In this document: positions 558 through 43,400 of the stretch, one piece after another
Layout: each line of letters begins with the position of its first letter
How positions within the stretch are numbered: the stretch's first letter is position 1
IMG/VR virus record: IMGVR_UViG_3300032323_001407
Coordinates: 1,533 to 65,532 of that record
DNA from: a virus
Taxonomy: Duplodnaviria > Caudoviricetes
Reading direction: 5' to 3' (one strand)
Length of the DNA stretch: 64,000 bases
Notes under the pieces: generated by a model
What the model was told of the DNA's origin: nothing
The model's input: the letters and a program-made list of their open reading frames with translations, nothing else
The model's database searches: none
Made by a program: the position numbers and the translations under genes

Positions 558-842
558 TTATATCCAATGCTTAATTATAGCACTCACTGCAAGTATTGTC
601 CAAAGTATGTTGAACCAAATTATTGTGGGGAGAGTTTTTACTGTTGATGACCAGATCAGCGCAAGGCTTGATACTAGGGCAAATATGTATAGCCACCACC
701 ATTGCTTACCAAATAATAACCCTGGAAATATAATAGATATCTTTGTCATGAAAGCAAAGAATTCAACAGTATTAGGTCTGTCCCAATACTTTCTATGTCT
801 CATTGTCTTTAATGCATTTATCCATTCGGTTCTAAATTTCAT
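558..842 (-). CDS. Hypothetical membrane protein
   Basis: 94 aa with about three hydrophobic segments; overlaps the halogenase stop codon. Confidence 0.65.
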   Translation of the reverse strand: MKFRTEWINALKTMRHRKYWDRPNTVEFFAFMTKISIIFPGLLFGKQWWWLYIFALVSSLALIWSSTVKTLPTIIWFNILWTILAVSAIIKHWI

Positions 843-2362: not shown

Positions 2363-2565
2363 TATTTTCTTCCCCATTGTATATAGTTCCATCCACGCTC
2401 ATGTGCGTAGTAGATAAATACTTTAACTACCGTTTCCCAAAAGGCAATCGTTACAGAAAGACCAGCATTTCTTGTAATAACATAGGCAACAGCAACAGAA
2501 GAAAGCGTTCCCCATATGCGATAACTTAATGCCTTGGCAAATGATCTAGCCCTGGTTACTGTCAT
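2362..2565 (-). CDS. DUF2061 small membrane protein
   Basis: RSFAKALSYRIWGTLSS...YYAHERGW signature; this family is often found beside APS kinase. Confidence 0.8.
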   Translation of the reverse strand: MTVTRARSFAKALSYRIWGTLSSVAVAYVITRNAGLSVTIAFWETVVKVFIYYAHERGWNYIQWGRK

Positions 2566-2653: not shown

Positions 2654-3415
2654 CTAGATACCCATTTCCTTACGCTTTTGTGTAGCAGAAATAGCATGAA
2701 TATCTGCACCTAAATCTACCTGCTCAATCTTATAACCTACATCACGACCATATACAATGTTGGTAATGTTAGGTAGTCTTAATACTAATGCGCCATCCAT
2801 GAATTCATCCTTGGCAATATATTCTTTTACCTGATCAAATTTAAGTGGATCCTTTTCGCTTGTGTTGTAGGTATTGCGGACTCCAAGAAGTACTTGGTCA
2901 GTTCTCTTACCAGCCTCCTTATAAAGGGCGTGGTGGCCCTCGTGCCACGGCTGATACCTACCCAGCATTAGAGTTGTAGGTGCAGACCAATCATGCAAAC
3001 CAAACTTTTCAATAATGTGTGAGGCCTTTGCATCTGCATTAAGGTTATGGCTAATAAAGGACACATCAAAATTATCTGGTCTCTCAAACATTTTATTAGT
3101 GTCTTCAAAGCGTCCTTCTGCTAAAGTGTCCATGAATACAAGAACGTCTGGCTTACCAAATGCTGCACGAGTTATTTCAGTTGGGCATACAAAATCAACG
3201 ATGACTGGAGCAACACCTTGCTTAGCAATTAAACGAGCCATCTCACCCATTCGCCTTGCCTGCTCGATTCTGTCTTCTGGAGTAAAGCTTAAATCAGAGT
3301 TTACTGTTGCACGAACCTCATCTGCATTAAGATGAATAGCATTTATGCGTTCCTTTAGTGCTTTGGCTAATTCAGTTTTCCCTGAGCCTGGTAGGCCGAT
3401 AATCTGTATAATCAT
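2654..3415 (-). CDS. Adenylylsulfate kinase-like domain fused to a HIGH-motif nucleotidyltransferase
   Basis: N-terminal P-loop GLPGSGKT, LNADEVR, FTPEDRIEQARR (CysC-like); C-terminal GRYQPWHEGH and ISATQKR. Confidence 0.8.
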   Translation of the reverse strand: MIIQIIGLPGSGKTELAKALKERINAIHLNADEVRATVNSDLSFTPEDRIEQARRMGEMARLIAKQGVAPVIVDFVCPTEITRAAFGKPDVLVFMDTLAEGRFEDTNKMFERPDNFDVSFISHNLNADAKASHIIEKFGLHDWSAPTTLMLGRYQPWHEGHHALYKEAGKRTDQVLLGVRNTYNTSEKDPLKFDQVKEYIAKDEFMDGALVLRLPNITNIVYGRDVGYKIEQVDLGADIHAISATQKRKEMGI

Positions 3416-3480: not shown

Positions 3481-4536
3481 TTAAACTCTGTTTATAGACT
3501 CTAAATTAGACATTGATGAAACCTCAATATATGTTGAGTTTTTTCTAAACTCCATTAAATTTTCTGATCCAGAATAAGACAAAGCGCTCTTTACATTATT
3601 TGTTAACATACTTAATGAATATTCTATTGATCCTTTAGATGAAACAAAGCCTGATACGCCCTCAACATATAAATTTGTTAAGTCTTTTGTAAGCTCTTCG
3701 TTATTATCTTTTTGAACTTCTAATGAGGCAGAGCCTCTAAATACATGTCTGCCATTTTTGTCTGTATCACACTCATCGTGCCCAGAAAAAAATGATCCCA
3801 TCATTACAGCCGAAGCTCCAGCAGCTAAAGCCTTTGCTACATCTCCGTTGTTTTTAATTCCACCATCTGATATTATTCCATTTACTTCAGAAGAATCAAT
3901 ATTTTCATAGCAATCCATAACTGATGATAAAACTGGAACTCCAAACCCCGTGACCATTCTAGTTGTGCATGCAGCGCCACCGCCAATTCCAACTCTTACT
4001 GAGTCTGCGCCAGCATCCATCAGATCTTTATAGGCCTCGTAAGAAGAAACATTTCCACACATAATATGCACACCAGGGCCCGCTAGCAGTCTGAGATCTT
4101 TTACTGCGTCAACAACAATTTTTAAATGACCTAAAGCTACTTCTAAAAGCAAAACCTTTATACCAAGTTTGCCTAGTAGCTCTATGCAGCTTTTATTTTT
4201 TGACTCTTCAATAGATATAGCAAATCCAATAAGACCTTTGTCAACTTTAGGCAATATTGATTTTAGCCTTGCTATTCTTTCTTCAAAATTAGTATATCTA
4301 GGAAGTATGGCAAGTCCGCCAAATGATGTAACCTTTTCTATCATAGAGTTACTTGTAATGAAATCCATAGGAGCCATAATGATTGGATTTCTTAAATTAA
4401 TAAAAGCCTCTGGCCTAATTGGATTTCCAATTACTGTGTCTAGATTTATATTGCCCCTAGTTACTATGTTAGATTTTTTAGGGACAAGTAGTATGTCATC
4501 GAAGCATATTGACCTAGTGTTTGTATCTTTTTGCAT
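3481..4536 (-). CDS. IMP dehydrogenase / GMP reductase family protein lacking CBS domains
   Basis: [24 protein letters not shown] catalytic loop, [25 protein letters not shown]. Confidence 0.88.
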
Positions 4537-20651: not shown

Positions 20652-21118
20652 ACTGGCACAAAGTTCCCTTCTGTTGTCTTAGTATACAATATAGTGTTGT
20701 GTTTGAGAAGAGCCCTCATTTCATTTCTTGAAGGCATGTTATTAGAATACCCTGATTCTAATATAAACTCATGAATGTCCATAATGTCCGATTCACTATA
20801 CATAAATTTATACCATGTGCTATCTGGATTACCTATTGGATATACTTTTTGAGGATATCTTATCTTCCCGTCCAAAATATAATCTTCTATAGTAACCTTA
20901 TGCTTGCCAAGCATTTGAGCTACTTGACTAGTTGAATATGCATTCTCCATAGTTTTTAAAACTTGTGAATAAGAATACATAAGTCTTTTTTTATCTGGAT
21001 AGCACCAAGCAACCATTTGGTCTTTAGATCTTGAATGACTTAATACTTTATGTATCTTGTTATTTAAGAAGAAATACCGAATGCTTTTAGCTGACTGTTT
21101 TCTCTTTTTTCTATCCAT
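20636..21118 (-). CDS. MerR/excisionase-like HTH DNA-binding protein
   Basis: YSTSQVAQMLGKHKVTIEDYILDG. Confidence 0.65.
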   Translation of the reverse strand: MDRKKRKQSAKSIRYFFLNNKIHKVLSHSRSKDQMVAWCYPDKKRLMYSYSQVLKTMENAYSTSQVAQMLGKHKVTIEDYILDGKIRYPQKVYPIGNPDSTWYKFMYSESDIMDIHEFILESGYSNNMPSRNEMRALLKHNTILYTKTTEGNFVPVWKAE

Positions 21119-21252
21119 TTACCTAGTGCACTCGTATCCTTATTAATCATCCATCTTTTACCGCACATCATGCAGAAAAGCTCTACGTGTAGTTTTTGTG
21201 AAAATACTCTATCTACAAAAACTCTCCCCTGACACTTATTGCATTTCATCAT
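21064..21252 (-). CDS. Small zinc-ribbon protein
   Basis: CNKCQG...CMMCG. Confidence 0.65.
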   Translation of the reverse strand: MMKCNKCQGRVFVDRVFSQKLHVELFCMMCGKRWMINKDTSALGKWIEKRENSQLKAFGISS

Positions 21253-22049
21253 AGCGTAAATAGCTTCCCATCAACAACACATGAGTAATCTGGTGCCACA
21301 TGGATCATTTGAATATGTGGGTAGTCATTTACAATATGTGCAATGGCAAAACCCTTTTGCCAATCATGGTGCTGCATATATTTCATTCCATCTGATTTTT
21401 CATCACACATGTGGCCAAGCTCATAACCTCGAAGAGTTTCTCCCTGTCCACCGTTTCTTAATTCATAAGTAACTAGGTGTGATGCTATTCTGTGAGAATG
21501 TCCTCTCATCAAAGATATCTGAAGGTCTTCCATGTCTTTTCTTACTGAACCAGTTGAAGCAATTGAAAGCCCATGGTGAACGTGTATATCTCCGAATCGG
21601 CGCTTTGGAAGTTCATTATAATAAATATACTCATAGCCTAAAGAGTCTAAGCTCCACATTGATTCTGGAGTTACCTCAGAAATATACTCTGGCAATTTAG
21701 CATCTACATAATTAAAGATTCTAATATCATGATTTCCTAATGCTGAAAAAAGCTGAGCATCTGGAAGCATCTCTCTTGTCTTTGCATAAAAGTCTCTTGC
21801 GCCTTTTGCTTCATGCCTCATCATTGGAACAATAAGATCTTTGCTATCATTCTTATGATAGTTTAAAAACTCTGCTGATTTGCCCTCAGTATACTTGCTA
21901 TAGCAAGCCTGATCATCTGTGTCTCCAAGGTAGTCAACGACATCTGGTTTAAACCACTTCATGACTTTAAACCAAAGCGCAATCATCTTATCATCTTGAT
22001 ACGGAAATTGTTGATCGGATGATATCATCCACTTTAAATCGTTGCTCAT
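21249..22049 (-). CDS. Calcineurin-like metallophosphoesterase
   Basis: SDQQ, GDTDD, GNHD, HHG and GHSH motifs. Confidence 0.85.
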   Translation of the reverse strand: MSNDLKWMISSDQQFPYQDDKMIALWFKVMKWFKPDVVDYLGDTDDQACYSKYTEGKSAEFLNYHKNDSKDLIVPMMRHEAKGARDFYAKTREMLPDAQLFSALGNHDIRIFNYVDAKLPEYISEVTPESMWSLDSLGYEYIYYNELPKRRFGDIHVHHGLSIASTGSVRKDMEDLQISLMRGHSHRIASHLVTYELRNGGQGETLRGYELGHMCDEKSDGMKYMQHHDWQKGFAIAHIVNDYPHIQMIHVAPDYSCVVDGKLFTL

Positions 22050-22070
22050 TAAAACCCTTAATATATATAA

Positions 22071-22090
22071 AAGCCACGATATCGTGGCTT
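22071..22090. promoter_or_regulatory. Perfect 20-bp palindrome (operator or hairpin)
   Basis: AAGCCACGATATCGTGGCTT is its own reverse complement. Confidence 0.6.
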
Positions 22091-22102
22091 AACGTTATAG
22101 CA

Positions 22103-22130
22103 ATTGTAACATATTAAATCAATGTGTCAA
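22103..22130 (-). promoter_or_regulatory. Promoter at the head of the replication module
   Basis: TTGACA-16 nt-TACAAT with a TGn extended -10. Confidence 0.65.
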
Positions 22131-22138
22131 TAGATACT

Positions 22139-22564
22139 TTAAGGGTTACTTATAATCTTTTTACCTGCACTCAACCAGTGAAAATTAACTGGTCCAGAGA
22201 TAGTTTTTTCAGCATACACATTAAGCTTAGTTGATCCCGCCCACTGTCCAGAAATAGACCATCGCATGTTATTAGTTTTAGGATCTTGGTTTCTTGGTGT
22301 TGCTACAACATAAGCAATTTCATATCCTGGTCCCCAACCTAAATCAATGTCAATTGAGCTAACCTTTCCACCAGGCAATCCAGTTTCAAATGTGACTACG
22401 CCAGCCTCTAAATGCATTCTAGATGACTGTGTGATACTACCTGCAGTTGTTGTACTAAGCTTATAAGACTCATCAGACTGAAGCTTAATGTTATCTATTT
22501 GAGTTTGAAGATCCTGTAATTTTTTAGGATCTACTGGCTCTCCATCTTGAAATGTTACAGTCAT
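22139..22564 (-). CDS. Hypothetical virion-associated protein
   Basis: FQDGEPVD N-terminus, coiled coil, beta-rich C-terminus ending FHWLSAG. Confidence 0.6.
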   Translation of the reverse strand: MTVTFQDGEPVDPKKLQDLQTQIDNIKLQSDESYKLSTTTAGSITQSSRMHLEAGVVTFETGLPGGKVSSIDIDLGWGPGYEIAYVVATPRNQDPKTNNMRWSISGQWAGSTKLNVYAEKTISGPVNFHWLSAGKKIISNP

Positions 22565-22752
22565 TATTCCCCCGCTATTTTGCTTTCTATATCTTTAGAG
22601 TATTGATCTATTGCTTTTTCTCTTTCATTTTGAGCGTCTGCCATTATTGTTAGATCTGCTCTCAATATTGAAATTTTTAATTCATAATCAGCGACCAACT
22701 CAGCAATCCTTTGCTGCATGGCTGTAATTATTAACTCTTCCTTTGAAGACAT
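22564..22752 (-). CDS. Small coiled-coil protein
   Basis: 62 aa with a heptad pattern. Confidence 0.6.
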   Translation of the reverse strand: MSSKEELIITAMQQRIAELVADYELKISILRADLTIMADAQNEREKAIDQYSKDIESKIAGE

Positions 22753-22763
22753 TTTTGCCTAAC

Positions 22764-22988
22764 TTATTCTGATAAAGTAGATATCTCTTCAACAAGAGCT
22801 TCTATTTTTTTGTTTACTGCAGCAATTTGAGCATTAACAGATGCGACAGCATCTGCAGATGGCACATCTGCTGCTTCCTCTTCCATCAAGTTTACTTGTA
22901 GGTTATACTTTGAGTAAGCAAGGGTTCTTAGGTGAGACTCAATGATTGAGCTTTTTTCTTCGTTTGATAGTGTGTATTCTGACATCAT
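22764..22988 (-). CDS. Small coiled-coil protein
   Basis: GGAGG RBS and an upstream TGGTATAAT -10. Confidence 0.65.
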   Translation of the reverse strand: MMSEYTLSNEEKSSIIESHLRTLAYSKYNLQVNLMEEEAADVPSADAVASVNAQIAAVNKKIEALVEEISTLSE

Positions 22989-23011
22989 TACCTCCTATTT
23001 ATATTATACCA

Positions 23012-23248
23012 TTACCATTTGCCGATAGGGCAGGTGGCACCTTGAAGCTTTGTTTTTGCTGGCATAAAACAGCCACATTCCTGACATGTCTTTACACCAT
23101 TATTAAATTTTGGGCACACCTGACATAATAAATATCTTTTGGAAGACTCTTCTTCAGATGCATATTCTGTGTTAGGATTTAAAAAATCCCATGGCTTTAC
23201 ATCATTTGAAGATATAAGCTTTTTTGCTTGTTCCCACTTACTTGTCAT
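23012..23248 (-). CDS. Cys-rich small protein (DUF6171-like)
   Basis: CQVCP...CQECGCFMPAK...CPIGKW. Confidence 0.65.
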   Translation of the reverse strand: MTSKWEQAKKLISSNDVKPWDFLNPNTEYASEEESSKRYLLCQVCPKFNNGVKTCQECGCFMPAKTKLQGATCPIGKW

Positions 23249-23474
23249 TGATTCCCCTAAATTCAAATCCATATCCATTCCAATAATAATCTGCACCTGC
23301 TTTAGGCAAATCTGGAATATCTATTTGTACTTCAGATAAATCAATTAAAGTCGGACTGCTTGAAAGACCAGCCCTAAGCAGGTCAGTTCCTGGACCATCG
23401 ATATTAAACCACCCAGCATATTCCCCATCTACTAAAACAACATAAGTGCTTCCGCCCATGCTTGATTTATTCAT
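23238..23474 (-). CDS. Hypothetical protein (possible tail-fibre assembly type)
   Basis: 78 aa, VVLVDGE...YWNGYGF; AAAGG RBS. Confidence 0.55.
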   Translation of the reverse strand: MNKSSMGGSTYVVLVDGEYAGWFNIDGPGTDLLRAGLSSSPTLIDLSEVQIDIPDLPKAGADYYWNGYGFEFRGINDK

Positions 23475-23496
23475 GTTAGACCTTTCTACTTGTTAT

Positions 23497-23524
23497 ATTC
23501 TATCATTTTATATCAGATTGTCAA
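23497..23524 (-). promoter_or_regulatory. Promoter downstream of the FFPP gene
   Basis: TTGACA-16 nt-TAGAAT with a TGn extension. Confidence 0.55.
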
Positions 23525-23538
23525 CACTTAATATTTTA

Positions 23539-26500
23539 TTAACGCTCATCACCCTGGAATGATGGGAAGAATGGTCCATCAAAGAACGGTGGGAAGAATG
23601 GTGGGAAGAACGGTGGGAAGAACGGTGGGAAGAACGGGTTAGCAGGGAAGCTAGGGCCACCCTTGAATGATGGGAAGAACGGTGGGAAGAATGGGAAGAA
23701 CGGTGGGAAGAATGGGAAGAACGGTGGGAAGAATGGGAAGAACGGTGGGAAGAACGGTGGGAAGAACGGTGGGAAGAACGGTGGGAAGAACGGTGGGAAG
23801 AACGGTGGGAAGAACGGTGTTGTAGAGCATGGAATATATTCAGCTTCAAAACCACTTACTTCACGAGATGAAAGAACATCACAGCTTGAGTTTATGCAAG
23901 TTTCTATTGCAGTCCAAGTTCTAGTCCTTCCACGTTCACCTTGCACACAACTACCGTAAGCACTCCAGGCAGAATATGAACGTGCTCCAGTTGTACATCC
24001 TGCCGTACAGCATGAAGTATATTCAAAATCTGTACCGTTAACTTCTGTTGTGCTAGTGCCACAGCTAGAATTTATATTAGTTTGAATTGCTGTCCAAGAT
24101 CGTGATCTGGCACGTTCTCCTTGCACACAAGATCCGTAAGCAGACCATGGACCATAAGTTTTCTCACCAGTTGTGCTACTTGGTACACAACATGAAGTAA
24201 ATTCAAAATCAGTTCCAGAAATTGTAGTGGTTTCTGTTGTACAGCTTGTAGTAAAGCATGTTTGTTCTGCTGTCCAGGATCGTGATCTGGCACGTTCTCC
24301 TTGAATACAGTTACCATATGCAGACCATGCTCCGTAAGTCCTTGCTCCAGTTGTACAAGACTGGACGCAACATGAAGTATACTCATATTCAATGCTATTT
24401 ACTTCATTCTGTGAAACTATACCACAGCTTGAATTAATGCATGTATTTATTGCTGTCCAAGATCTTTGCCTTCTTCTTTCTCCTTGCACACAAGATCCGT
24501 AAGCAGACCATGGACCATAAGTTTTAGTTCCAAGTGTACACCCAGCAGTACAGCAAGGAGCGTATTCAAAATCTCTACCGTTAACTTCGTTTGAAGTTGT
24601 TGTACAGTTAATTGTGTTGTTTGTCTGTATTGCTGTCCATGAACGTGATCTAGCACGTTCTCCCTGTATACAGTCGCCATATGCTGTCCACTCTCCATAA
24701 GTTTTAGGTCCAGTAGAACTGCTTGCAACACAACAATCTTTATACTCAAAATCAAGTCCACTTTCTTGCGTTGTAGTTGTAGTACAGTCTCTAGTGAAAT
24801 TAGTTCTTGTTGCTGTCCACGGCACAGATCTTGCAATTCTTCCATCTTGAATATTACATGTTCCCCAAGCATTTGGTGTCCCATAAGTTTTTGCTCCAAG
24901 GGTAGATGTTGGTACACAGCAATCAATCTGTTCTATATCTACACCAGAAAGCTCTACATTTGTAATAACACAATTTTGAGCAGTTGTTTTTTGAATCTGG
25001 GTCCATGTCCTTGTTCTTGTTCTTTGTGGATCCTGTGGAGCTACTGTGCAAAGTCCTGTGACCCATTCACCGTAGACTTTTGGCTCAAGAACAACTGAAG
25101 GGCAGCACAGGTTATCTGTTTGAGAGCATATTACTGCATAGTATAATCCATTTATAGTTTTATCAGATATCTCGGTTGATTTTGAGCAGAGTCCACCAGT
25201 TACCAAAGTTAAGCAATACCAAGTACCTCCGATAACAATACATCTAGCAGCAGACTCTTTTGACTCATAGGAAACTGAAGTTAAGTTTACATTATCAATT
25301 TTAGATGTTATTGCTGTTAGACATGAATTGGCTCCCGATGTAACATTGCTTACAGATATAACTTCGGAGGACCTTGTTGCACTTCCACTTGTTGCAGAAA
25401 CTGTTATATCAAATGAACTGATGGTGCTCCAATTTGTTATGTCAACCTTATACCCTGTTGATGTTATGTCGTAAGGCATTCCTAATTCTGCTGCAATTCC
25501 AGACGACAATGTTCTAAAGCTTTTAGAAACCTCGTCGCTTTTGTACTTGTCTCCTTCTCCAGCAAGTGCCGTTACCAAAACGGTATACAGTCTGTTTTCC
25601 GTTAATCCAAAAGGGCTGGCAGAAGTATTTGTTGTTGAGGTTAATGGATAGCCAGGCAAAGAGTTACCTGTGATAGAATCAATTAGATTAACTTTATATC
25701 TTTCTGCATCTGGAGAATACCAGGATATATCTACAGAGCTTTTTGTCCTATTTGATATATCTATTGTTGGATTTTCTACTTCTCTTGGGGGCACAAATAC
25801 ATAGGATGCAATCTGTATAGTTTCATTTGGATCTGATAGATGTCCATCTAAAGACAACCCGCTATTATAATAATAATCATTTGCAACTGAATAAACGTTT
25901 ATAATATAGTCTTCACCAGAATCTATCATGGCTTGAGTATAAGTTATAGTTCCTGAATATTGATGATTTGGCAAAACATCTTCGCTTTGCAGTGTGCCTA
26001 TTCTTGTTCCGTAAAAATCGGTTAATTCAATTATTTGCTTTCCAATAAACTCATCTGTTCGAGATGATGGAAAGTATTGTCCATTTGGATAAGATGCTGC
26101 AGATGAAGTTAGGTACTGCCATTTAAAACCAAATATTTTAAATTCAGGCATGCTCAATGTTTCATCTTCAACAATTTGATCACCTGTGCTGTATGTAGTA
26201 AATCCAAATGTTAGTCTTGGGAATATTCCTGTTGCACTTGGATACCATGTTGTTGCTTCTAGGTAATCTGATTCTGAAGGATCTTTATCTTCTGCCGCCT
26301 GGATTTTTGCCCTAAATCCATTTTTATTTTTTATATCTTCTAATGTTATAGTTGGGCGATTTGATGCTGATGTCGGAACCTGATCTAAATAATCAGAATC
26401 CCGATATTGAGAATATTCAAGTTCTTGGCTAACTAAATCTATTGCAGATCCCCAACTAGACATAGCTGCTTTTTGAATTTTTATTAAAAATGATTTAGGA

Positions 26501-26820
26501 TTTTCATACCACTTACCTCTAACAACATACATTTTGTCTTGCTGTGTACATGAGTATTCAGAAGTTTGAGAATTTGGTGATATAAAAACAAGTGCGACAT
26601 CTGATTTTGGATAGGGGAAAACTGCTCCAAATATTCTTCTCCATATTCCAGAACCTTCATATCGCCATATTGTTCTAAGCTTTACCCACCCATTTACTGC
26701 TGCAGAAACTTCTCCACCTGAATCATTGATTCTTCTCCAGATGTTTTTTATTTTTACCCAGCCATTTGTTGCTGCAGAGACTTCGCCTCCTGAGTCATTT
26801 ATTCTTCTCCATATGGTCAT
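23539..26820 (-). CDS. Tail-fibre-like protein: Trp-rich N-terminal repeat, FN3 domain, seven Cys-rich TSP1-like repeats, C-terminal FFPP repeats
   Basis: Last large gene of the tail module; FN3-like SVDISW...GLTENRLYTVLVTA; repeats visible in both protein and DNA. Confidence 0.75.
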   Translation of the reverse strand: MTIWRRINDSGGEVSAATNGWVKIKNIWRRINDSGGEVSAAVNGWVKLRTIWRYEGSGIWRRIFGAVFPYPKSDVALVFISPNSQTSEYSCTQQDKMYVVRGKWYENPKSFLIKIQKAAMSSWGSAIDLVSQELEYSQYRDSDYLDQVPTSASNRPTITLEDIKNKNGFRAKIQAAEDKDPSESDYLEATTWYPSATGIFPRLTFGFTTYSTGDQIVEDETLSMPEFKIFGFKWQYLTSSAASYPNGQYFPSSRTDEFIGKQIIELTDFYGTRIGTLQSEDVLPNHQYSGTITYTQAMIDSGEDYIINVYSVANDYYYNSGLSLDGHLSDPNETIQIASYVFVPPREVENPTIDISNRTKSSVDISWYSPDAERYKVNLIDSITGNSLPGYPLTSTTNTSASPFGLTENRLYTVLVTALAGEGDKYKSDEVSKSFRTLSSGIAAELGMPYDITSTGYKVDITNWSTISSFDITVSATSGSATRSSEVISVSNVTSGANSCLTAITSKIDNVNLTSVSYESKESAARCIVIGGTWYCLTLVTGGLCSKSTEISDKTINGLYYAVICSQTDNLCCPSVVLEPKVYGEWVTGLCTVAPQDPQRTRTRTWTQIQKTTAQNCVITNVELSGVDIEQIDCCVPTSTLGAKTYGTPNAWGTCNIQDGRIARSVPWTATRTNFTRDCTTTTTQESGLDFEYKDCCVASSSTGPKTYGEWTAYGDCIQGERARSRSWTAIQTNNTINCTTTSNEVNGRDFEYAPCCTAGCTLGTKTYGPWSAYGSCVQGERRRQRSWTAINTCINSSCGIVSQNEVNSIEYEYTSCCVQSCTTGARTYGAWSAYGNCIQGERARSRSWTAEQTCFTTSCTTETTTISGTDFEFTSCCVPSSTTGEKTYGPWSAYGSCVQGERARSRSWTAIQTNINSSCGTSTTEVNGTDFEYTSCCTAGCTTGARSYSAWSAYGSCVQGERGRTRTWTAIETCINSSCDVLSSREVSGFEAEYIPCSTTPFFPPFFPPFFPPFFPPFFPPFFPPFFPFFPPFFPFFPPFFPFFPPFFPSFKGGPSFPANPFFPPFFPPFFPPFFPPFFDGPFFPSFQGDER
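23560..23820 (-). repeat. 12-bp/9-bp tandem repeat encoding (FFPP)n
   Basis: Plus-strand units GGGAAGAACGGT and GGGAAGAAT. Confidence 0.95.
23825..25105 (-). repeat. Seven ~180-bp repeats encoding ~60-aa Cys/Trp units
   Basis: Consensus CC...TYGxWSAYGSCVQGERxRxRSWTA...C...E(Y/F). Confidence 0.9.
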
Positions 26821-33815: not shown

Positions 33816-34402
33816 ACCTGCTCCAAAGATATGTTAACACTCCAAAATGTTTGTAGTCCTCTTTTAATAACTGAAAAACTGCAAGATGTAAACATTACTG
33901 TGTAAGTATAGTCATCTGATAAAGCTCCGTCAGACTGCTCAATTAAATCGGTACTAAAAACTGTTGGGTTTAATTTAATTCTAAAGGGTAGTTTACCAGC
34001 AGAACTTTCATAAAAGTTTTTCAAATCTTCTGCGCCCCAAGCACCGTCAACTGTTTCATTTCTAAAAGAAGGTAACATTTCCCATGAAATATTTATATTA
34101 ATCTTATCGGCCACAACATACTTTCTGAGTGTACCGTTTGACATTCTAGATGACTTCTCAATTCTATTTGTATCTATTGAAATTGGCTGTCTATTGTGCT
34201 CAGTAACTCTTCTAAATCTTAATTGATTTTTAGAGCTATAAGCCAAGTTGTTTCTAGTTGCTACAGATGATGTATATAAATTACCTGGGGCAACAACAGA
34301 AGCCCCCTTATAATCAAATGAGTTATTTGCTGTATCAATTGCAAATGGGTCTAATGCCTCTATGTATAAAATTGAGCCTTTACTTAAATTTTGAAAACTC
34401 AT
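33812..34402 (-). CDS. Distal-tail-like protein
   Basis: Directly after the tape measure; RMSNGTLRKY...ISWEMLPS. Confidence 0.65.
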   Translation of the reverse strand: MSFQNLSKGSILYIEALDPFAIDTANNSFDYKGASVVAPGNLYTSSVATRNNLAYSSKNQLRFRRVTEHNRQPISIDTNRIEKSSRMSNGTLRKYVVADKININISWEMLPSFRNETVDGAWGAEDLKNFYESSAGKLPFRIKLNPTVFSTDLIEQSDGALSDDYTYTVMFTSCSFSVIKRGLQTFWSVNISLEQV

Positions 34403-37400
34403 TATGACCCAACCTTTCTATTTACTCCAGCTGCCATTTCTTTTAATCTCATTTCATTACGTATTTCTAGTGCAACATCTTTTGCTGTCACGTTTGTTCC
34501 ATTTAATTCTACATTAATATTATATACTGATCCTGATGCTGCCGCCGTAGCATTTGGATTAAATGGATTCATGTTAGCTGGAATAACAGCTTCATTTTTA
34601 TGAAGCATTGCCAACATATTTGCAGGAACCATATTGATTCCGTTTTCAAACATTGGTAAACCTAGATTTTTTAATGAAGAATTTGAGAAGTTTTGGACAA
34701 GTCCACCAGCTGCCATCCCTGTAGGCATCCATCCTTGAGCAGCTACTTGTGCATACCTTATATGATCAGGTATATCGGTTTTTCCTGCTCTTATTGCATT
34801 TTCTAAAGCAATAATTCTTTGTAGCTCTGGTAAAGCTGCTGGCTCTATATATCCGCCTGGACCATATGGGAAGTTTTCTGATGTGCGCCCCATGGATTCA
34901 ATCCATCTTACAGTTTCTGGCCTAAGAGCATTTCTTAATTCATCATTATACCAAGTCAGTCTGTCTTGTTGCTGTCCAATTATGCTATTTGGATCATTAA
35001 ATTCGTCATAGGGGTAGCGAGGAGTTGGTGTTGCAGAGGATACGGCTTCAGTTTCATGATTATTTTCCCAAGATCCGATACCTTTCCTTGGCTCTCCAGT
35101 TGATGGCTTTGCTTTCTTAGACTTTTTAAGTTTCATTAGTGTATCTAGATAGCTCTTTATGCCAGTAATTGAAGTTGCACCATAGTAAGGATCATCTGCC
35201 ATAAACCCACCGATACGAAGAGCTGATGGCCTTCCCATGTCAGTTAAAGTAGGTGAATGTTTTATTCTAGTAATTGAAACTGCTTTATTGTATAAAGCTT
35301 CTGAAAGATGAAGCCATCTATATTCTGGATGTGTTCCACGATAGCTAATGTGTCCAGTAACTGGATCATAGTTTATCCAGGACATTTGTTTTTTAGTAAC
35401 AGGATCTAGAATCTCTACTTGGTGCATTCCACCTGCGCCAAAGCCTTCTGAAGTTACTCTTCCTTCTTTTAAACCTTCAATAAATTTGTCTATGTATTTT
35501 GCATCAGTAGGTAAAATATCTGCTTTCTCAAACCTAAAAATATAATCTTTTCCGTTTACCTTAATAGACTCTTCTATAATTTTTGGCAAATTCTTATTTT
35601 CTTCAATAAGATTAGCGGCAGTGGTATTTTTTAAATCTGGTAGTGAAGTAAAATTATTTCTCCTTGCTGCTCTTATTGCATCAGATAGCGCAAGTTCATA
35701 TCTTGCTTTTGCAAACTCTGGTGTGTCAACCTTATCTGCTTTTTTAAGAGCCACAAAATTACTTCTAAGTGTAGCGTTTGGAATAAGGCTAACTCTAGCT
35801 TCTGTTGGTAAATCTAGAGTTGCTTTATTTATTAAATTATATGCTGCAGAACGTGCACGAAGTGTATTAACTCCCTTTAGAGCACCCACTCCTGGAACAA
35901 AATTTAATCCTGCATTAGCCCAATCACCTTTAGTTGCGCTTCCCTTTGCAATTTCTCCGAAAGGATGAATCATAGCTTTCATCAAGCTAGAAACATCTGA
36001 TTCATAAGATGTTGGATTTAAAGCTTTTCCAATTCCATCTTTTCCAAATGTTGGAGTTTTACCTTGAAAGTAAACACCCAAAAGATCTGAAGCTAATGAT
36101 GTAAGTGGCGCAAGAATTCCAAATGGGGAACGAGTGAATACTTTACCAAATCCCTCTGAGTAGTTATTTATAGGATCATCTATTTTAGATTCATAATATG
36201 AAAGATTTTTGTTTTCTTTTGCTTTTTGTTTTTGGTTTTCAGCCTTAAGTGGAGTAAGCTGAAGTCTCATCTTCTCGGCTTCGGTTTGCTTTCTGCTTAA
36301 ACCAAACGATCTCATGCCTAGGTCATGAGGTGCACTTGAATGAGTGTGCCCTACTGGACCCCCAGCATGGAACATTAATGGGCCAAGTCCGTATGCTCCA
36401 TTACCAATGCCACCCATAGAAGCTCCAGAGCCTGCCAAACGTATAGGGTCTCTATCTATACCCATCCCTGGGCTTGCAAACGGCTTACGTGGCTGCTCAG
36501 CCATTTGATGCATGTAGTCTGAGTGCTGTGGAACATCTCCGCTAAAATTAAGTCCTGGTATTTCTGTTCCGCCCCATATGTCCATACCTGGGCTACGTGG
36601 TCCAATAAATCTTGAAAGCTCTCCCCAATATTGTCCAAAAGGATTTCCTATTGGTTTTCCAGATCTTGAATATGGAACCCCTGGCTTCTTTTGTCTTGGT
36701 ACTGTTATAGGCCCACTAATCCAATTTCCAGAATTAGTTAATGAGTTTACGACTTTTCCACCTTCTGCAAACTTCTTTATGCTTACCTTTGTACCTGCAA
36801 AAATTCTTGACCCACCCATATACTTTGGATCTTTTAGCTGAGGATTCATTTCCATTAATTGCTTAACAGTAATACCATACTTTGCAGCAATACTAGATAG
36901 TGTATCTCCTCTGTTTACTGTGTATCTTTCATTTTCATAATCTGATTTAGCATCATCTGCGCTGTAGTATTCTTGTGTGCCGTATCCATATTTAATGTTA
37001 TCTACTGGCTTATATGAAGGTCTTCCAAATCCTACAATTGGAGCATTCTTTAAATTGTATTGTCTTACTTTTCTAAGTACGGCTCCGCCGCTTCTTTGAC
37101 TTCCAGAGCCTGATGTGTTTCCTTCTATAGTTGAAACTGAACTCTTTCCTAAAACATTTCTTACAAGACCAACGTGAGAAATTCTGTTTACGCCGTCTCC
37201 TGGGAAATCCATAAAGGCTAAATCTCCACGACGTGGATTCATGGTTGTCCACTTGCCACTCTTCATAAATGATTGAGCTCCGCCAGGAGTCCAAATCATA
37301 CTTGACAGATCTACTCCAGATTTTTTTGCTGCCCAATTTATAAAGGCGCCACACCATGCAATAAATCTAGTTTTTAGATCGTAGGCTTTTTGTGCAAAGC

Positions 37401-40400
37401 TACCGAATATTGTGTCATTGCCTCTTCCTTCTTGATAGCCTAGCATAGACTCTGCTGTTTTGATCATTGCGTCTGCTGTTCCCATAGTGCCAACTTTTCC
37501 ACCATTTGCAAATCTGCCAGCGTTTAAGTTATCTAAGAAACCTGATCCAAATTGTCTTTCAGCTTTTTCAACTGAACTTGCTCTAATTACATACTCTCCA
37601 TTTGAAAGATAAGCTGGAATAGAATCAGATGTTCCTGTGCCTGGGCCTCTTACATCTCCACCTGGATTAAAGTGTTTAACTGCTCCTCCAGTGGCCATCT
37701 TAACTCTGGCACCCTTTGTTTTCTTCTGATCATCCCATGAATAAACTTCTGTTCCAGAATCATTGCTTATGTAGTCTTTCCCATTCCAGCTAAATCTATA
37801 CCATACAACATCATTAATGCTAACCATCTTTGAAGATCCAGAAGATCTTGCATTTTTAGCAGCCTCTATTGCATTTTTTCCTCTGCCTTGCTGAACTGTA
37901 TCTTTTCCAAATTCAACAGTACCCTTTGGTGTGGGTGCCTTGTAACCTCCTAGTGCTTTCACAAGGTCATCACGAAGTTTAGATAGGGTTACTCCTCCAG
38001 TAATTAAAATTGCTAGCTTGCTTACAGCTGCAACATCTTTATCAAACTGGGAAAGAGAATCATTGTTTACTGTTCTATTTTCTGAAAGAATAGGTCTTCC
38101 CTGTGCATCAAATCCAGTTGGAGATCCAGTAGTTACTTTTTCAGGAACTTTTGGCTTTCCGTCTGAATTAAAATATCCTGGGAATGCATTTCTTATTGTT
38201 TCTGCAAGCAGGCCTGGTCCAGTCCCAGCCTTTTGCATTTCTTTTAGGAAACTAATAAGCTGTCTCTTAATATCTGCTTCTTCTTCAACTCTATCTTTAC
38301 CTGAAAGAAGCTGTGCATTAACAGCTCTTGTACTAAGCTCGTTATACTTTGACTGAAATTTTTCAAGAGTGTCTTTTATATCAGCTGCTACTGCAGAGTC
38401 ATCTTGATTATTTTGGAAAACAGTATTCTTTTTATCTTGTGCGTCTTGTATTGCTTGTGCATCTTTTTCCAATGGTGCTTTTGCCTTATTAGCCGCATCT
38501 TCTATAGCCTTCTGGGCTAACTCTGATTGCCTATTTTGAGTAAGCTGATCTATATCAAGCTTTGCTTGATTTGCTGCAGCCATATCTCCACGAGAAACTG
38601 CATCTGCATATTTTATCTGTAGCTTTTGCAATTCTAATGCATAGTTTGAAGCATCTTGAGTTGCCCTTAAGGCTTCTAGCTTTTTATTTTTCTCTTCATC
38701 GATAAGTTTGATCTTTTTTGCAATTACTTTTAATTCTTCCTGTGCACTTCTTTGAGAAGCTGCATTTGCTCTTTGAGCTGCTGCAGAAGTTGCAGCAATT
38801 GTTTTTTGAAGTTTAGATAAAGCAGATCCAACAGTTGCGTATGTGGTAGCAGAATCAGCAGCTTGTGTTAGCTGGGAAATTCCTGTTCCGATTGCTGAAG
38901 TAAATCCAGCAAGTTTTGATGCTAGAGTAGAATCTATTTTGCTTAGATCAATATTTATTCCAGCAGTAAAAAGTTTCCACTTTGCAAGTATTCCCTTTAT
39001 AGTGTCTGATTCATTAATTATTCCTGCTAGCAAAGGTTGTGTTTTTTGAAGATTTAAGTATACGTCGCTACCTATTTCTTTATTCATGCCTGGGTTATTT
39101 GTTTCTGCTTTAGACATAACCATTTCATAAGCTTTAAACTCATCTATAACATTTCCAAGCTCATCTTTTGTTCCAACTAAAGATTTCGTTGCTTCAGAAA
39201 ATACACCTATTAGTCCTTCAAAACCGTTTCCTACCTCTTTATACCAATCAGCAGTTCCTGTTCCTTTGCTTAAGGTGTTTACCAAATTTCCAACAGAAAA
39301 TTCTGCCGCTGTAGCTTTATCTGTTATTGCTCCAAATTCTGTATTTGCAAGCAATTTGTATGCTTGAGAAGCTTTATTGCTATTTGCTAAAGCACCGTAT
39401 ATTTTTTTATTTGCTTCTTCAACGCTCATCCCAGCAGCAACCATTTGTGCTTTTTGATTATTAATTAATCTTTGTGTTTCTGCTGTTGTTTCTGATCTAT
39501 TCAAGGATTCAATTACATCTTTTAATTCTTTTCCTTCTTCTTTTGCCTTCTTAAGTTCCTCTATTGATTGAGGTAGTCCAGGCATACCAATTGAGTTTCC
39601 TTCTGCCCCCTTGGCTGCTGCGGTTGCTAATTTTTGTTTATCTATGTAGCCCTGCATGGTTTCTTTAAGATTAAAATACTTTATTCCAGCCTGCTCCGCA
39701 GCTTTAGCTGTCATAGAAAGTCCTATAGAGGCATCTTGCTGAGCATCCTTGTAATCTTTATAAAGTTTAAACGCTAAGCCTGCGGCACCGATTGCTGCTC
39801 CTATTAAGCCAAAGCCTTTAGCAAATCTTCCAATCATTGCTCCAAATCTTGCCATCTTGTTAAGACCAGTAGTTAATTCTTTTAATGCAGACCCTGCGGA
39901 TTTTATCCCTGCACCCATTCTACCAAATGGAAGCATTGGAAGTATTGAAGTAGCAGCCATAAGACCCATTCCAGCGGACGCTCCTGACACTTCTTTTCCT
40001 AGGATGTTAACTTTTTCTTTGCCCATCAATGCCATGCCGCCCATTGATCCAGCCATTCCAATTCCCATTTGAGAACCCATACTCATACCATTGTATCTTC
40101 CAGGAACAGAAATTCCAGCTGCTTTGGCTTGCGCCTTAGTCATTGAAACATCTCTACCACCAGTTGACTCATTGTTTACAAGATACTCTGTTCTTCTCAT
40201 GCCAATAGTTCCGACTTTTCTGGATTGAACTCCTTCTACACCAGTATCTTTATAGCCTCCAACAAATCCTGGTCCGAATAGTCCCTGCGATGGTGCTTGT
40301 CCAGCAGGATATCTAGCTGCAGCATAAGCATTTTGTTCTCTTATGATTGCGTTTTGCGCTCTTTTGGCAAAATTTAATGTTGATGTAGCAGCTGATCTTA

Positions 40401-43400
40401 CAGCACTGCTCATATTTGTAGCAGTATTCTTTATAGACTGAGTAATAACTCTTGCATTTATATCTATAGCTTTTGCTAGCTGCATAGAGTCTACCTTAAT
40501 TGAATTTCCCATAGATCTAAAAGCTGCTGATAAATATTGAGTTTTCATTGCTGCTGAATTTCTAAATGGGTCAAGCATGCTATTAACCATTACTTGTCCA
40601 GGGTTGTAGAAGCTTGTTGTTCCAGTTCTTACCGCTTCTCTACCTAAGCCGCTTGTTAAAGCCTGTTGACCAGTAATTTGACGAGATGAAGCCCTAGATC
40701 TTTCTGCTGCTAAATCTCTTTCTCTTTGTGCACGTTGTTCTGCTTCCCAATTAGCTCTTGCAGCAGGGTTTCCTGGTCTGCGTGATCCATCTTTTTTAGG
40801 ACCGTAAGCATATCTTCCTCGTCTGATTGGACCGCCACCAACTGGTCCTCCAGCATTAAGATATTTTGGATTAGCATGCACGGCATGATATTTACTCCAA
40901 TCAACCTCAATACCATCATCTAATCTTTTGAGCATTGCTTGATAAGGAGGTCTAAGATCTACAGGTAAATCATTTATTATTTTTAATAATTTTGGACGAG
41001 CATCTTCTAATATTTTCTTCATTCGTCGACCATATTTTTTTGGGCTCATCTTAGCAATTATTGGGGCAGTGTCACGTGCAAAATCTTTTCTTGCTCCACC
41101 TTTAACGGCAAGTAGATTAATCATTGCTTGCTTTTCCATAGAGTTCATTTCATGAGGTTCTGCAAGACGTGTATTACCAGATGCTTTAGGTAATACTCCA
41201 GCTTGCCCGACATCTGGATTGAAATTACCATACACGTTTGCCCTAGATAAATCTTTGTTGTTCAAAAGAAGAGAGTTAGCAAGCTGTCTAAGCACTGTAT
41301 CTTCATCCCATGGCACATTAGTGTTTGCAAAGCGTGGGTCGTAATCTGATTCTAAAGCAAGGAGCTTGGTTTTTTTTGATGGATCTACTGGATTTGCAAC
41401 TGTTCTAGCTGTTTGTACTGGAGAATGTATTCCAAAAAGATCTCTTGTAATTTGAGTGCCAATTGGCTCATGGACGGCAGTTAATTCATTAGGAACACCT
41501 TTAACAAAAACTTTTTTGTTACCGACCTTATACAATCCAGATACACCAGGTACAGGATAACTCATTCCTGTGCTTGCAGAAATTTGATGCCCATATTCAG
41601 TTACTGGCATATCGGCAAATTTACCTAGCGAGCCTCTCGAGCTTAATTCTCTTGCCTTTGCTAAAATCTTTAATTGTTTATCTGGTGCAAGCAATCTTAA
41701 TGCAGGAGCAATATTTCCATAATTTGATCTACCCTTAGATATGGATCCACCTGGAATCATTCCTCCCATATTGAATGCTCCTGCTACAAGCATTGGCCTT
41801 GGAGGTCTTCCAGCAAATATCCATCTTGATCTTTTTGCTGCTGCTTCTAAAAGCATACTTAAAGATTTTCTTTGATCTTTATTTGCCCGTACTACATTTC
41901 CAGATGCAATTTGAGCATTGCTCTTAAATAATCCGTCATCTTGCAACGCTGTGTATATATCATCTACACTTGCAAATTTATCTAGACCTGTTTTCTTTAA
42001 TGCCATAGCAAGGTTTTCTTTTGCATCTTCTGAACTTAAATTTAAAATATCTCTTGATAAGCCTATGGTTTCAAGTGTGCTCATTACATTATTGATACCA
42101 GCAGGTAATACAGCACCAACCCCCATATAACCACTAGTTGTATATCCAACTAAATCTTTGCGTCTAAAATGTGCTTTATCGTGCAATCCTTGAATAGATG
42201 GGGATCCATCAGCATTTGCAAATGTTGTTGGAGCAATTGCTTCTATAAGATCACGTACTCCAGCAAATCTTTTATCACTTAGCATCGCTTCTCTAACGCC
42301 ATTTAATTGATAATTTAAAGCTTTGCTACCACTTCTTGGATATACTGTTTCTCCATCTGAATTTTTAACACCAGCCGCATCTTTAACACGGGGAACCATT
42401 CCATCTCTTTCTAGCCCCTGCACCTGCTTGATTCTTATTTTTACAAAATTTTCATCGCTTCCGCCAGCTTGAGCTTTAGCTTTATCAAAATTGCTTGTTG
42501 CAATACTTATAGCTTTATGAATTGGCAAGTTTTTATGGTTAGCCAATTCAGCTGCATCAAGCATAATCATTCTTACTCTTATATCATCTTCGTATCTTGG
42601 ATTATTAATAAACTTTAGATACTCTCTATACTGTCTCTTAAAGTTTTCTTCTTTCATTCTAGCCTTAGCAGACTTAGACATTTTTTTACCATATGAATTA
42701 ATGCCACGCATGATCTGCCCGCCAAAACTATATCCACTATTTGCTGCATCTACTGCTGCATATAGCTCAGGCATTCTTTGAATTTCAGGACCAAAAACTA
42801 CTTCCCTTGGAGTAAGCGCTGCAGTAATATTTCCGCCATCATTTAAATAAGTGCTTGGAGCCATTGCAACTAATGCAGCATTTGCTGGATCCATTGAAGC
42901 TTGCTGATTTAAAACATACCCGCCGAGTGGAACGCTTCCTAGTCTATCGTCGTAATTAATTGAAGATGGACCAGAAACCGTAGTCTTGCTTGGGCCAAAT
43001 GACTCGATGTCTCCACCAATATTAAACTTAGGCATTCTTGTTGTTTGAATACTATATGGAGCTCCAAATGTTCTAACCCCACGAAGTCTGCCGAACTCTT
43101 CCATAACAGAAGCATTTGTTTTTTTCTTATATAGATCTCTAAGAGTAAACTGCCCATTTGCATCAACAACTGGCTGATCCATCATTGGAGCTCTTGTTAA
43201 ATCAATTGTTCTACCTCGTCCAGCAGCATACATACTTATTGCTGAACCCATATCTGTCTCTATCTGTGCATTAAGAGCAAGTATTCTTGCCTTTGCTTGA
43301 TCAACAGTTATTTCTGCATTTCTCATTTGCTGAACAATTAGTGCAGATTGAGTTGCTGCGCTATCTGCAAATCTTTGAGTTATTGGAAGAATGTCGTCGA

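Follow-up and report, generated by a model that had tools for sequence, protein, structure and literature searches.

A Phe/Pro-repeat tail as a candidate exchangeable module of phage fibre-type proteins, with a possible link to phage-encoded hydroxylases

Why should a fibre-like protein of a phage end in 94 residues that are mostly phenylalanine and proline? The question is raised by P0001, a protein of 1093 amino acids encoded in a window of 64,000 nucleotides, by which we mean the whole stretch of DNA analysed here (bases 1533-65532 of the 65,532-base IMG/VR record IMGVR_UViG_3300032323_001407, classed as linear and 49% complete). A prediction made from the letters of this DNA (below, the original prediction) had described the C-terminus of P0001 as a (FFPP)n tail of about 90 residues and had proposed that it is a tag attached to more than one protein of the phage, possibly as a site of modification. 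The data presented here are best explained if the tail is translated, open to selection, and a module that is exchanged horizontally, placed at the distal C-terminus of a fibre-type protein. Beyond this, we give roughly even odds (about 0.5) to the reading that the tail would form an extended, non-globular whisker at the tip of the fibre and would be modified by a hydroxylase array of the phage itself. Throughout, L numbers denote IMG/VR loci and G001 is a 98%-complete relative of the phage.

The Phe/Pro tail of P0001

The tail reads TTPFFPPFFPP...PFFPFFPP...PSFKGGPSFPANPFFPP...DGPFFPSFQGDER* (over residues 1000-1093, TTPFFPPFFPP...FFPSFKGGPSFPANPFFPP...FFDGPFFPSFQGDER); it includes ...EYIPCSTTPFFPP and has the C-terminal sequence ...PSFQGDER. 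Phe (41 residues) and Pro (36 residues) make up 82% of the 94 residues, or 44% and 38%, respectively, and there are one Lys and one Arg. About 13 FFPP and 5 FFP units can be counted. We defined the module as three or more consecutive [F/Y]FPP units that continue the reading frame of a folded domain before them, which is the arrangement found here, the tail being joined straight onto the last Cys-rich repeat of P0001. The tail is in frame, and the original description of it was correct in every detail that we compared.

Two blocks make up the tail (Table 1), and a PFFPSF[K/Q]G motif closes both of them; we infer that a whole cassette was duplicated, giving the two blocks. By eye, the end of the first block resembles the ...FK(G) ends and the junctions in front of Hint domains that are found in other loci (see below). 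The terminal ...PFFPSFQGDER resembles the FK-type ends without being identical to them, and no cap lies behind it.

Tandem Repeats Finder reported periods of 12 bp (19.8 copies, score 262), 21 bp and 9 bp at 23582-23819, all multiples of 3, in agreement with the in-frame units of 12 and 9 bp that had been predicted. The 21-base unit has 15 forward occurrences in the 65.5-kb record, versus 0 for a reversed control pattern. Across the repeat the other two frames of the minus strand are open as well, as (SSHR)n over 115 aa (23508-23855) and (VLPT)n over 59 aa (23651-23830). A wrong-frame artefact was considered and rejected, as these alternative frames give short open reading frames (ORFs) only, joined to no long ORF. 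Within the tail, TTC encodes 40 of the 41 Phe residues, versus 3 of 26 in the body of the gene and 94 of 462 in 16 other genes of the window, and CCG encodes 14 of the 36 Pro residues, versus 14 of 434 in the comparison. The use of TTC TTC avoids runs of six T, which may reflect selection against frameshifting.

An AlphaFold2 model of residues 879-1093 gave the tail a confidence (pLDDT) of 40-61 and no secondary structure. Because the 94 residues hold 13 Pro-Pro pairs, with Pro-Pro every four residues, neither a helix nor a sheet should be possible. The tail is probably an extended, polyproline-II-like chain, which at the polyproline-II rise of 0.31 nm per residue would measure up to ~29 nm when fully extended. 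A collagen-like triple helix, which needs Gly-X-Y, was rejected, the tail having 5 Gly in 94 residues and none of them periodic. A protein search with the tail alone returned 1 match at E ≤ 0.001 from 7482 word-sharing candidates, with HMMER discounting low complexity, and a comparison of the tail with the ESM Atlas gave no usable match.

Hydrophobicity alone (44% Phe) could suggest that the tail is an anchor or an inserting segment that enters a lipid bilayer, either in the host or in the virion. We regard this as very improbable. The spacing of the Pro-Pro pairs prevents a transmembrane helix, as had been predicted, and the same repeat links soluble FN3 domains in other loci. In addition, the host is likely a Gram-positive actinobacterium, since the nearest cultured relatives are tailed Streptomyces phages, and would therefore have no outer membrane.

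Occurrence and exchange of the repeat

We searched IMG/VR with a degenerate DNA pattern for (FFPP)3 and found at least 124 stretches; the locus counts below refer to 80 loci fetched from among these, containing 81 ORFs. Of the six frames, that of FFPP is the longest in 74 of the 81 viral ORFs. In 66 ORFs the repeat is preceded by 100 or more in-frame residues or the frame continues past the contig end; the 15 remaining ORFs encode small proteins, in which 33-96 residues come before it. Prokaryote genomes (596 Gb) contained the same pattern in only 24 stretches, and the FFPP frame was longest in 8 of 25 ORFs; these eight in-frame cellular ORFs look like phage proteins by eye and probably belong to phage contigs binned into metagenome-assembled genomes. 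Clustering of the domains that precede the repeat (70 sequences) gave 46 groups at 70% identity and 15 groups at 40%; the domains visible to Pfam are mostly FN3. The preference for TTC extends to the 81 viral ORFs (1745 TTC vs 290 TTT). Some repeats in other loci include WFPP units.

Two FFPP genes were found on one contig in L065, L079/L080, L085/L086 and L087/L088, and in the window, too, the tail occurs on more than one protein, as the original prediction had proposed. The second tail of the window reads FFPPFFPFFPPFFPPFFPGFGPYFPGFKAPFFPGFG...GGWGPY*; its gene is cut by the contig end, the record stopping inside the repeat. This gene is syntenic with that of a 308-aa protein of G001 composed of two FN3 domains and (FFSPPFFPPG)n, and similar tails occur in L022 and L062. 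The small FFPP protein of the L022 type gave no match by tblastn against 50,697 GenBank phage records with the low-complexity filter on. The codon unit TTC TTC CCA CCG is common to the second tail of the window and to the tail of L017, a related locus described below; because the same unit recurs, the tails may share a DNA origin, which suggests exchange at the DNA level.

What follows the repeat varies among the 81 ORFs. The protein ends exactly at ...FK in 22 and within a few other residues in 12, whereas 14 have a short Cys-rich end, 8 a Hint domain flagged by a regular expression, 2 an SDxRxK motif and 19 an 'other domain'; 4 run off the contig. Reading the 'other' rows raised the number of Hint loci to 12, and the remaining rows include more FN3-like domains. 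One ORF (L056) was confirmed to carry Peptidase_S74 (Pfam E 3.6e-11), with the junction repeat-PPAFK|SDVRDK-Peptidase_S74, and eight further full-length relatives have the same N-domain, the repeat, ...PP[A/G]FK|SD[V/L]RDK and S74. In ordinary S74 fibres the cleavage motif comes after ...TSIT[A/S]L|SD, and cleavage in the S74 family occurs at the Ser. Such cleavage would leave ...FK as the mature end, matching the largest class of FFPP proteins (22 of 81). The repeat would then usually be the mature distal end, either directly or after removal of a self-cleaving cap, and sequence comparison indicates that phage fibre proteins carry the FFPP tail as a genuine, mobile module.

The caps also bear on the possibility of a structural shaft, in which three (FFPP)n chains of a trimeric fibre would be packed into a Phe-cored, collagen-like or polyproline-II bundle, nucleated from the C-terminus and elsewhere provided with a cleavable cap, so that the role of the repeat would be mechanical and not adhesive. 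The repeat abuts Peptidase_S74 directly in nine loci, and Schulz and colleagues reportedly found in 2010 that an endosialidase-type S74 domain trimerises and folds the adjoining upstream segment before releasing itself by cleavage. The mature protein of the L056 family would be little beyond an N-domain of 60-90 residues and the repeat, and Hint caps take the same position in 12 loci. We nevertheless consider a shaft doubtful. Without a Gly at every third position the sequence excludes a collagen triple helix, the monomer model shows no structure in the tail, and P0001 has neither an S74 nor a Hint domain (Pfam scan and Hint profile). The solved polyproline-II bundles are glycine-rich, according to the accessible part of a preprint (bioRxiv 10.1101/2023.11.25.568672).

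Evidence of exchange came from 12 related IMG/VR loci, in which the orthologues are 59-81% identical over residues 1 to ~1000 of P0001. Eleven of them have, in place of the FFPP tail, (Thr-Ile/Val-Asn/Asp)n, below (TIN)n, then a run of 4 or 5 Gly, and a C-terminal domain with Cys as its first residue and a length of ~160 residues. L017 is the only one of the 12 with an FFPP tail, whose end is GFGGGGQIPV. Identity to G001 is 83-84% in both flanks (26651..23837 and 23473..21000); homology breaks at 23837/23836 and resumes at 23473. The 1359 bp that G001 has in between consist of (TIN)n, Gly5, a Hint domain and a separate gene for a 192-aa 2-oxoglutarate (2OG) oxygenase, the start of which overlaps the stop of the fibre gene. 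The tail is a discrete cassette with sharp recombination borders.

A maximum likelihood tree of the fibre bodies, with tails removed, was built from 8 rows; L010, L011, L013, L018 and L020 were left out as identical to kept rows, and L019 and P0004 as truncated. The three FFPP-tailed rows are not a clade, and forcing them together costs 130 log-likelihood units (approximately unbiased test, p 0.0001). Among the 8 rows, tail type must have changed three times or more. Tail type does not follow the fibre-body tree. Further arrangements were found in P0004 (Cys repeats, (FFPP/HFPP)n and Hint), in P0005 (an FFPP tail of 30 residues with no cap) and in L299 and L313, where an FFPY-type repeat, (TIN)11, Gly5 and Hint are combined in one tail.

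The C-terminal domain of the orthologues was not recognised by Pfam, and a PDB sequence search gave a chance-level row only. Its structural model (pLDDT 86.7) matches 6y75 (E 7.8e-9), 2lwy (E 2.9e-8) and Hedgehog 1at0 (E 9.4e-5), and the alignment contains Cys1, a TYEH block and a terminal HN with no Cys, Ser or Thr next to it. The model and the alignment point to a Hint fold that would cleave and not splice, because no +1 nucleophile follows the HN. A profile of 13 Hint domains gave one match each in G001 and G002 (E 1e-54) and none in the 65.5-kb record of the window phage, which is 49% complete. We also searched with a DNA pattern for (TIN)4, which found 89 stretches, mostly chance matches in AT-rich giant-virus bins; about 20 of 81 ORFs are real proteins with (TIN)n, a Gly-rich segment and Hint.

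Slippage was predicted to change the length of the tail while keeping the frame, and this was borne out. Among five near-identical gene pairs, two differ in repeat length (by 15 and 1 residues), one of them keeping a Cys knot in frame downstream, and the four indels listed in lake-metagenome contigs are all of 3 bp. Between L012 and L014 the length of (TIN)n varies by 24 residues. Contigs of three metagenome runs from three studies cover the sequence on either side of the FFPP repeat with 0-3 differences; two of the runs are labelled lake water, and the run with the best coverage may be the sample from which the record came. Inside the repeat the summed contig depth is 10 to 130 times that of the flanks and many contigs exit the repeat into different sequence; therefore, the same DNA unit sits in many genomic contexts in these lakes. 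The repeat also breaks short-read assemblies, as IMG/VR contigs start or end inside an FFPP repeat in the window record (at 64000) and in L025, L034, L054, L055, L062, L073, L074, L081 and L090, and these phage genomes are therefore systematically truncated at FFPP genes.

Variation of this kind could also be that of a neutral minisatellite, a slippage-prone repeat of 12 and 9 bp that has grown at the gene's 3' end and is tolerated there without being of use. Consistent with this, the units within the window are near-identical, pointing to recent expansion, the length differs in two of five close pairs, all three frames are open across the repeat and the closest relatives have no FFPP tail. 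According to the original prediction, such an origin would be indicated by relatives that lack the tail or that read the repeat in different frames. The first was literally found, in 11 of 12 related loci; the second was not, the FFPP frame being the longest in 74 of 81 ORFs, with functional domains following in the same frame. Neutrality does not follow, because of this frame conservation and because a clean cassette of another repeat and a Hint domain replaces the tail in the relatives. Moreover, the repeat is nearly absent from the cellular genomes searched, where most matches are out of frame, TTC is used over TTT contrary to the genome's own usage, the same peptide occurs on unrelated lead-in domains (15 clusters at 40% identity), and oxygenase arrays, described below, lie downstream and almost never upstream. 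A neutral minisatellite is therefore improbable in our view.

Oxygenase arrays and the possible role of the tail

Right downstream of the second tail gene of the window lies an array of oxygenase genes (Table 1). Five of its six paralogues score above the Pfam cutoff for PF13640 and the sixth reaches 26.9 vs 27 bits. The HxD...H motif is intact in all six, and H149, D151 and H202 are invariant in 8 of 8 aligned sequences. The marks of prolyl 4-hydroxylase (P4H)-type 2OG oxygenases are PF13640, this iron triad and a basic residue ~10 positions after the distal His, and the enzymes of the array were assigned to this type. The first paralogue (63016-63720), the only one searched against PDB sequences, has its best match in the prolyl 4-hydroxylase of Bacillus anthracis (3itq/5hv0, E 1e-5), followed by the lysyl hydroxylase LH3. 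The DUF6065 protein and the 265-aa protein embedded in the array gave nothing usable against PDB sequences. The laminin-G protein of 587 aa behind the array is syntenic in G001 (L159:14158-15921), where it also comes after an array, and it may belong to the same unit.

A profile built from the enzymes of this array, and iterated once, finds 145 ORFs in the 80 FFPP loci. Downstream sequence of 1500 bp or more was available for 73 FFPP ORFs; a same-strand oxygenase starts within the first 1500 bp in 39 of them, and 50 have one anywhere downstream. For the 59 ORFs with 1500 bp or more of upstream sequence, the corresponding upstream counts are 0 and 2. In total, 127 oxygenase ORFs lie downstream and 2 upstream, and the downstream link is present in every C-terminal class. 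A DUF6065 profile finds 33 ORFs in the same loci. Judged by gene order, FFPP-carrying genes are typically followed by arrays of predicted P4H-like 2OG oxygenases. The proposal that the tail is a modification site thereby gained circumstantial support; for P0001 itself the adjacent oxygenase is lacking.

In the reading that we favour at about even odds, the Pro/Phe polymer would extend as a polyproline-II-like whisker from the distal end of the fibre and would display ~40 phenyl rings at its tip. The six-paralogue array beside the second tail gene would hydroxylate the tail of P0001 in trans, and hydroxylation would make this hydrophobic polymer soluble and stiffer. The whisker could then serve as a sticky or spacing tip in the first contact with the host envelope. 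The copy in the window is cap-less, and its Hint cap would either never have been present or have been lost; its ...FFPSFKGG, which is internal, and its terminal ...FFPSFQGDER both have the look of a former cassette end. In other loci the repeat is the end of the protein, or a stalk before a Cys knot, FN3 domains or a predicted self-cleaving cap (Hint, Peptidase_S74).

Several observations weigh against this reading. The ORFs downstream of P0001 (23474 to 22139) are small and gave no oxygenase match, and 23 of the 73 FFPP genes have no oxygenase in their downstream DNA. The counts are not independent events because the loci are related phages, and oxygenases are also found elsewhere in such phages (13 matches in G001). 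Low AlphaFold confidence is also expected of meaningless sequence. No contig in four public runs (contigs, not reads) bridges the repeat at 23600-23790, so that the tail length in nature rests on one assembly. The fibre must work without FFPP, since 11 of the 12 related loci lack the tail. Finally, the proline-free (TIN)n fills the same place in G001 with an oxygenase of its own, so specificity for proline is not required of the oxygenases, and the repeat could matter chiefly as a spacer. In that cassette (L160:4289-5584) Asn occupies every third position, and the target of its 192-aa oxygenase may be Asn, or something other than the repeat.

A passive spacer or leftover would be a linker of low complexity for which (TIN)n or (PT)n could stand in. 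Its role would be to keep a distal element (Cys knot, FN3, Hint cap) at a distance from the fibre; in P0001 this element would have been lost, and what remains would be a stalk with no activity of its own. In this direction point the loci in which FFPP lies between FN3 domains (L027, L029, L030, L038 and L068) or before a (PT)n linker (L097), and the orthologues that place (TIN)n at the same site; (TIN)n itself is an interdomain linker between small Cys-rich domains in L276, and in L287 it comes after (PT)n linkers and a motif like that of thrombospondin type 1 repeats (TSR). The ...GFGGGGQIPV end of L017 resembles the Gly4|Cys junction of Hint-capped forms, and the internal ...SFKGG of the window tail is like a former end. 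On the other hand, in 34 of the 81 ORFs the protein stops within the repeat or very few residues beyond it, and cleavage by Hint or S74 would also leave the repeat terminal; a terminal repeat is thus the common state and not a defect. A spacer would also leave unexplained the 44% Phe, the codon signature and the hydroxylase arrays downstream. We therefore think a purely passive role unlikely, and retain the modified whisker as the preferred reading.

A broader scenario can be put forward tentatively. Lake actinophages might carry a protein-tailoring system for fibre tips, in which Pro/Phe or Thr-Ile-Asn polymers made on ribosomes would be decorated by arrays of up to six or more different 2OG oxygenases, resulting in a hydroxylated, glue-like or glycan-bearing whisker similar to plant extensin or mussel foot protein. 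In Hint-capped forms the C-terminus of the polymer would be activated as a thioester and then either released or ligated to another molecule; the tail of P0001 would represent such a system without a cap, with the array at 58002-63720 acting on it in trans. Such a system is conceivable, with the odds clearly against it.

Gene context and relation to known systems

The phage is uncultured and, by sequence, related to large Streptomyces siphoviruses: its capsid and portal proteins are 62% and 59% identical, respectively, to Streptomyces siphovirus proteins (from phages of ~130 kb). Taken together with the lake-water runs, this makes it most likely a lake phage of actinobacteria, the host being deduced from these relatives. 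All 65 long ORFs of the window are on the minus strand. In gene order, the tail block encodes a tape measure protein of 3774 aa that contains lysin domains, a minor tail protein of 1094 aa (phrog_10359), a tail protein of 286 aa (phrog_9983), an FN3 protein of 822 aa and, last, P0001. The tape measure gene (34402-45726, minus strand) is very long, and its product has endolysin-like and transglycosylase-like segments at residues ~2750-2990. The window further encodes, at 839-2392 (minus strand), a full-length homologue of flavin-dependent tryptophan halogenases (PF04820, E 1.5e-104), adjoining kinase-like and dehydrogenase-like genes (2654-3415 and 3481-4536); it is possibly another tailoring enzyme for aromatic residues in this phage.

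Table 1 Position of the tails, the fibre gene and the oxygenase array in the window.
Feature	Position	Strand	Details
Fibre-like gene P0001	23539..26820	-	1093 aa; N-terminal 24-aa tandem repeats, weak FN3, seven Cys-rich repeats, FFPP tail
FN3-like domain, residues 353-432	25525..25764	-	Pfam fn3 E 1.2e-4, 22.6 bits, cutoff 25
Seven Cys-rich repeats, residues 574-999	23824..25101	-	~60 aa each; pattern W..Y/W..C...R.R.R.W; KTYGxWSAYGxCxQGERxRxRxWTA...CC
(FFPP/FFP)n tail, residues 1000-1093	23542..23823	-	94 aa; stop codon at 23539-23541
Tail block 1, residues 1000-1054	23659..23823	-	Ends ...PFFPSFKGG
Tail block 2, residues 1055-1093	23542..23658	-	PSFPANP(FFPP)4FFDGPFFPSFQGDER
Cassette without DNA similarity to G001	23474..23836	-	363 bp (tail, stop, spacer) vs 1359 bp in G001 (blastn)
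Second Phe/Pro tail, C-terminal 66 residues	63800..64000	-	(FFPP)n then (PFFPGFG/PYFPGFG)n
Array right downstream of second tail gene	58002..63720	-	Six 2OG-FeII_Oxy_3 (PF13640, P4H-type) paralogues, DUF6065 and 265-aa protein (Pfam)
Six oxygenase paralogues	63016-63720, 61534-62283, 60096-60827, 59356-60099, 58598-59356, 58002-58589	-	
DUF6065 protein	60840-61553	-	Embedded in oxygenase array
265-aa protein	62259-63056	-	phrog_7084; embedded in oxygenase array
Laminin-G/concanavalin-like protein, 587 aa	55001-56764	-	PF13385, E 3e-11; behind oxygenase array

The label "tail-fibre-like" for P0001 is reasonable but indirect, being based on its position at the end of the tail block and on the weak FN3 match. 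A Pfam scan at E ≤ 1 gave fn3 only, with no Peptidase_S74 and no TSP_1; neither P0001 nor its 822-aa neighbour has a PHROG match, and P0001 gave no tblastn match in the 50,697 GenBank phage records with the low-complexity filter on. Its Cys-rich repeats resemble TSRs and were modelled at pLDDT >90 (two repeats, in the model of residues 879-1093). By phmmer they match P0007, a protein with 11 TSP1_spondin repeats (E 3e-9). Compared with TSR2-3 of thrombospondin-1, the repeat model had Z 4.0 and a root-mean-square deviation of 7.4 over 101 aligned residues, tied with unrelated folds (VIA-align), and in Foldseek the TSR entries were weak (E >0.05). This type of repeat is rare, with 11 proteins at E ≤ 0.001 among 1.84 billion representatives, and TSR-like repeats in a phage fibre would be unusual. 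P0001 opens with two 24-aa tandem repeats (IWRRINDSGGEVSAA.NGWVK; 26681-26815, minus strand), and similar Trp-rich N-termini (W..I/V K..W.K) start other large FFPP proteins (L029, L038, L043, L087 and P0005); they may be a shared virion-attachment motif.

In bioRxiv and the Creative Commons part of PMC, as far as the accessible text of these sources goes and with subscription journals outside their range, we found no description of FFPP-type repeats in phages, of Hint-capped phage fibres or of phage P4H substrates. Many aquatic phages hold several 2OG-Fe(II) oxygenase genes of unknown substrate, for which a proline-polymer tail would be a concrete candidate. The rebuilding of fibre tips through exchange of entire repeat cassettes at one fixed position, whether or not a self-cleaving cap comes with them, would be a route to host-range change. 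A polymer of 44% Phe and 38% Pro is also an unusual material and, if ordered or adhesive, would be a new kind of fibrous protein segment.

The closest viral parallel to a repeat and its enzyme is the chlorovirus PBCV-1, for which Eriksson and colleagues reportedly described a prolyl 4-hydroxylase in 1999 and which is said to have proline-rich repeat proteins of its own. In both systems a virus encodes P4H-type 2OG oxygenases together with proteins of short, tandem, Pro-rich repeats that are plausible substrates. Unlike PBCV-1, a giant algal virus, the present phage is a tailed bacterial one, its FFPP repeat is aromatic and uncharged, its arrays have up to six or more paralogues and include DUF6065, and hydroxylation is putative.

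The caps have known counterparts as well. The fold that caps the repeat in the orthologues and in 12 FFPP loci is that of the bacterial intein-like (BIL) and Hint domains of Clostridium thermocellum (BIL, 2lwy) and Tetrahymena (BUBL BIL2, 6y75), with Cys1, TxxH and often HN; P0001 has no such domain, so that the relation is to the module family and not to the window copy. Endosialidase-type S74 fibres are matched by L056 and its eight relatives, which carry the repeat and then S74; the known ones have a triple beta-helix or similar structure upstream and not a Pro/Phe polymer, and P0001 has no S74.

Among proline-rich peptides, the antimicrobial PR-39 and Bac5 hold xFPP units but are strongly cationic, with Arg in each unit, short, and active inside bacteria. 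The phage tail shares with them short FPP-containing units and an extended form, in contrast to their charge, having one Lys and one Arg in 94 residues. Other extended Pro-rich sequences include the PT linkers in glycoside hydrolases, the extensins and proline-rich proteins of plants, gamma-zein with its (VHLPPP)8, and mussel foot protein 1. Several of them are hydroxylated by P4H-type enzymes, and those of mussels and plants pair aromatic residues with hydroxyproline for adhesion or cross-linking. The tail has in common with these linkers and wall proteins the short tandem Pro-Pro units and a polyproline-II character, and in L097 the FFPP repeat stands directly before (PT)n. None of these cellular, secreted proteins has an FFPP unit or ~44% Phe, and the likeness is one of possible mode of action, not of descent.

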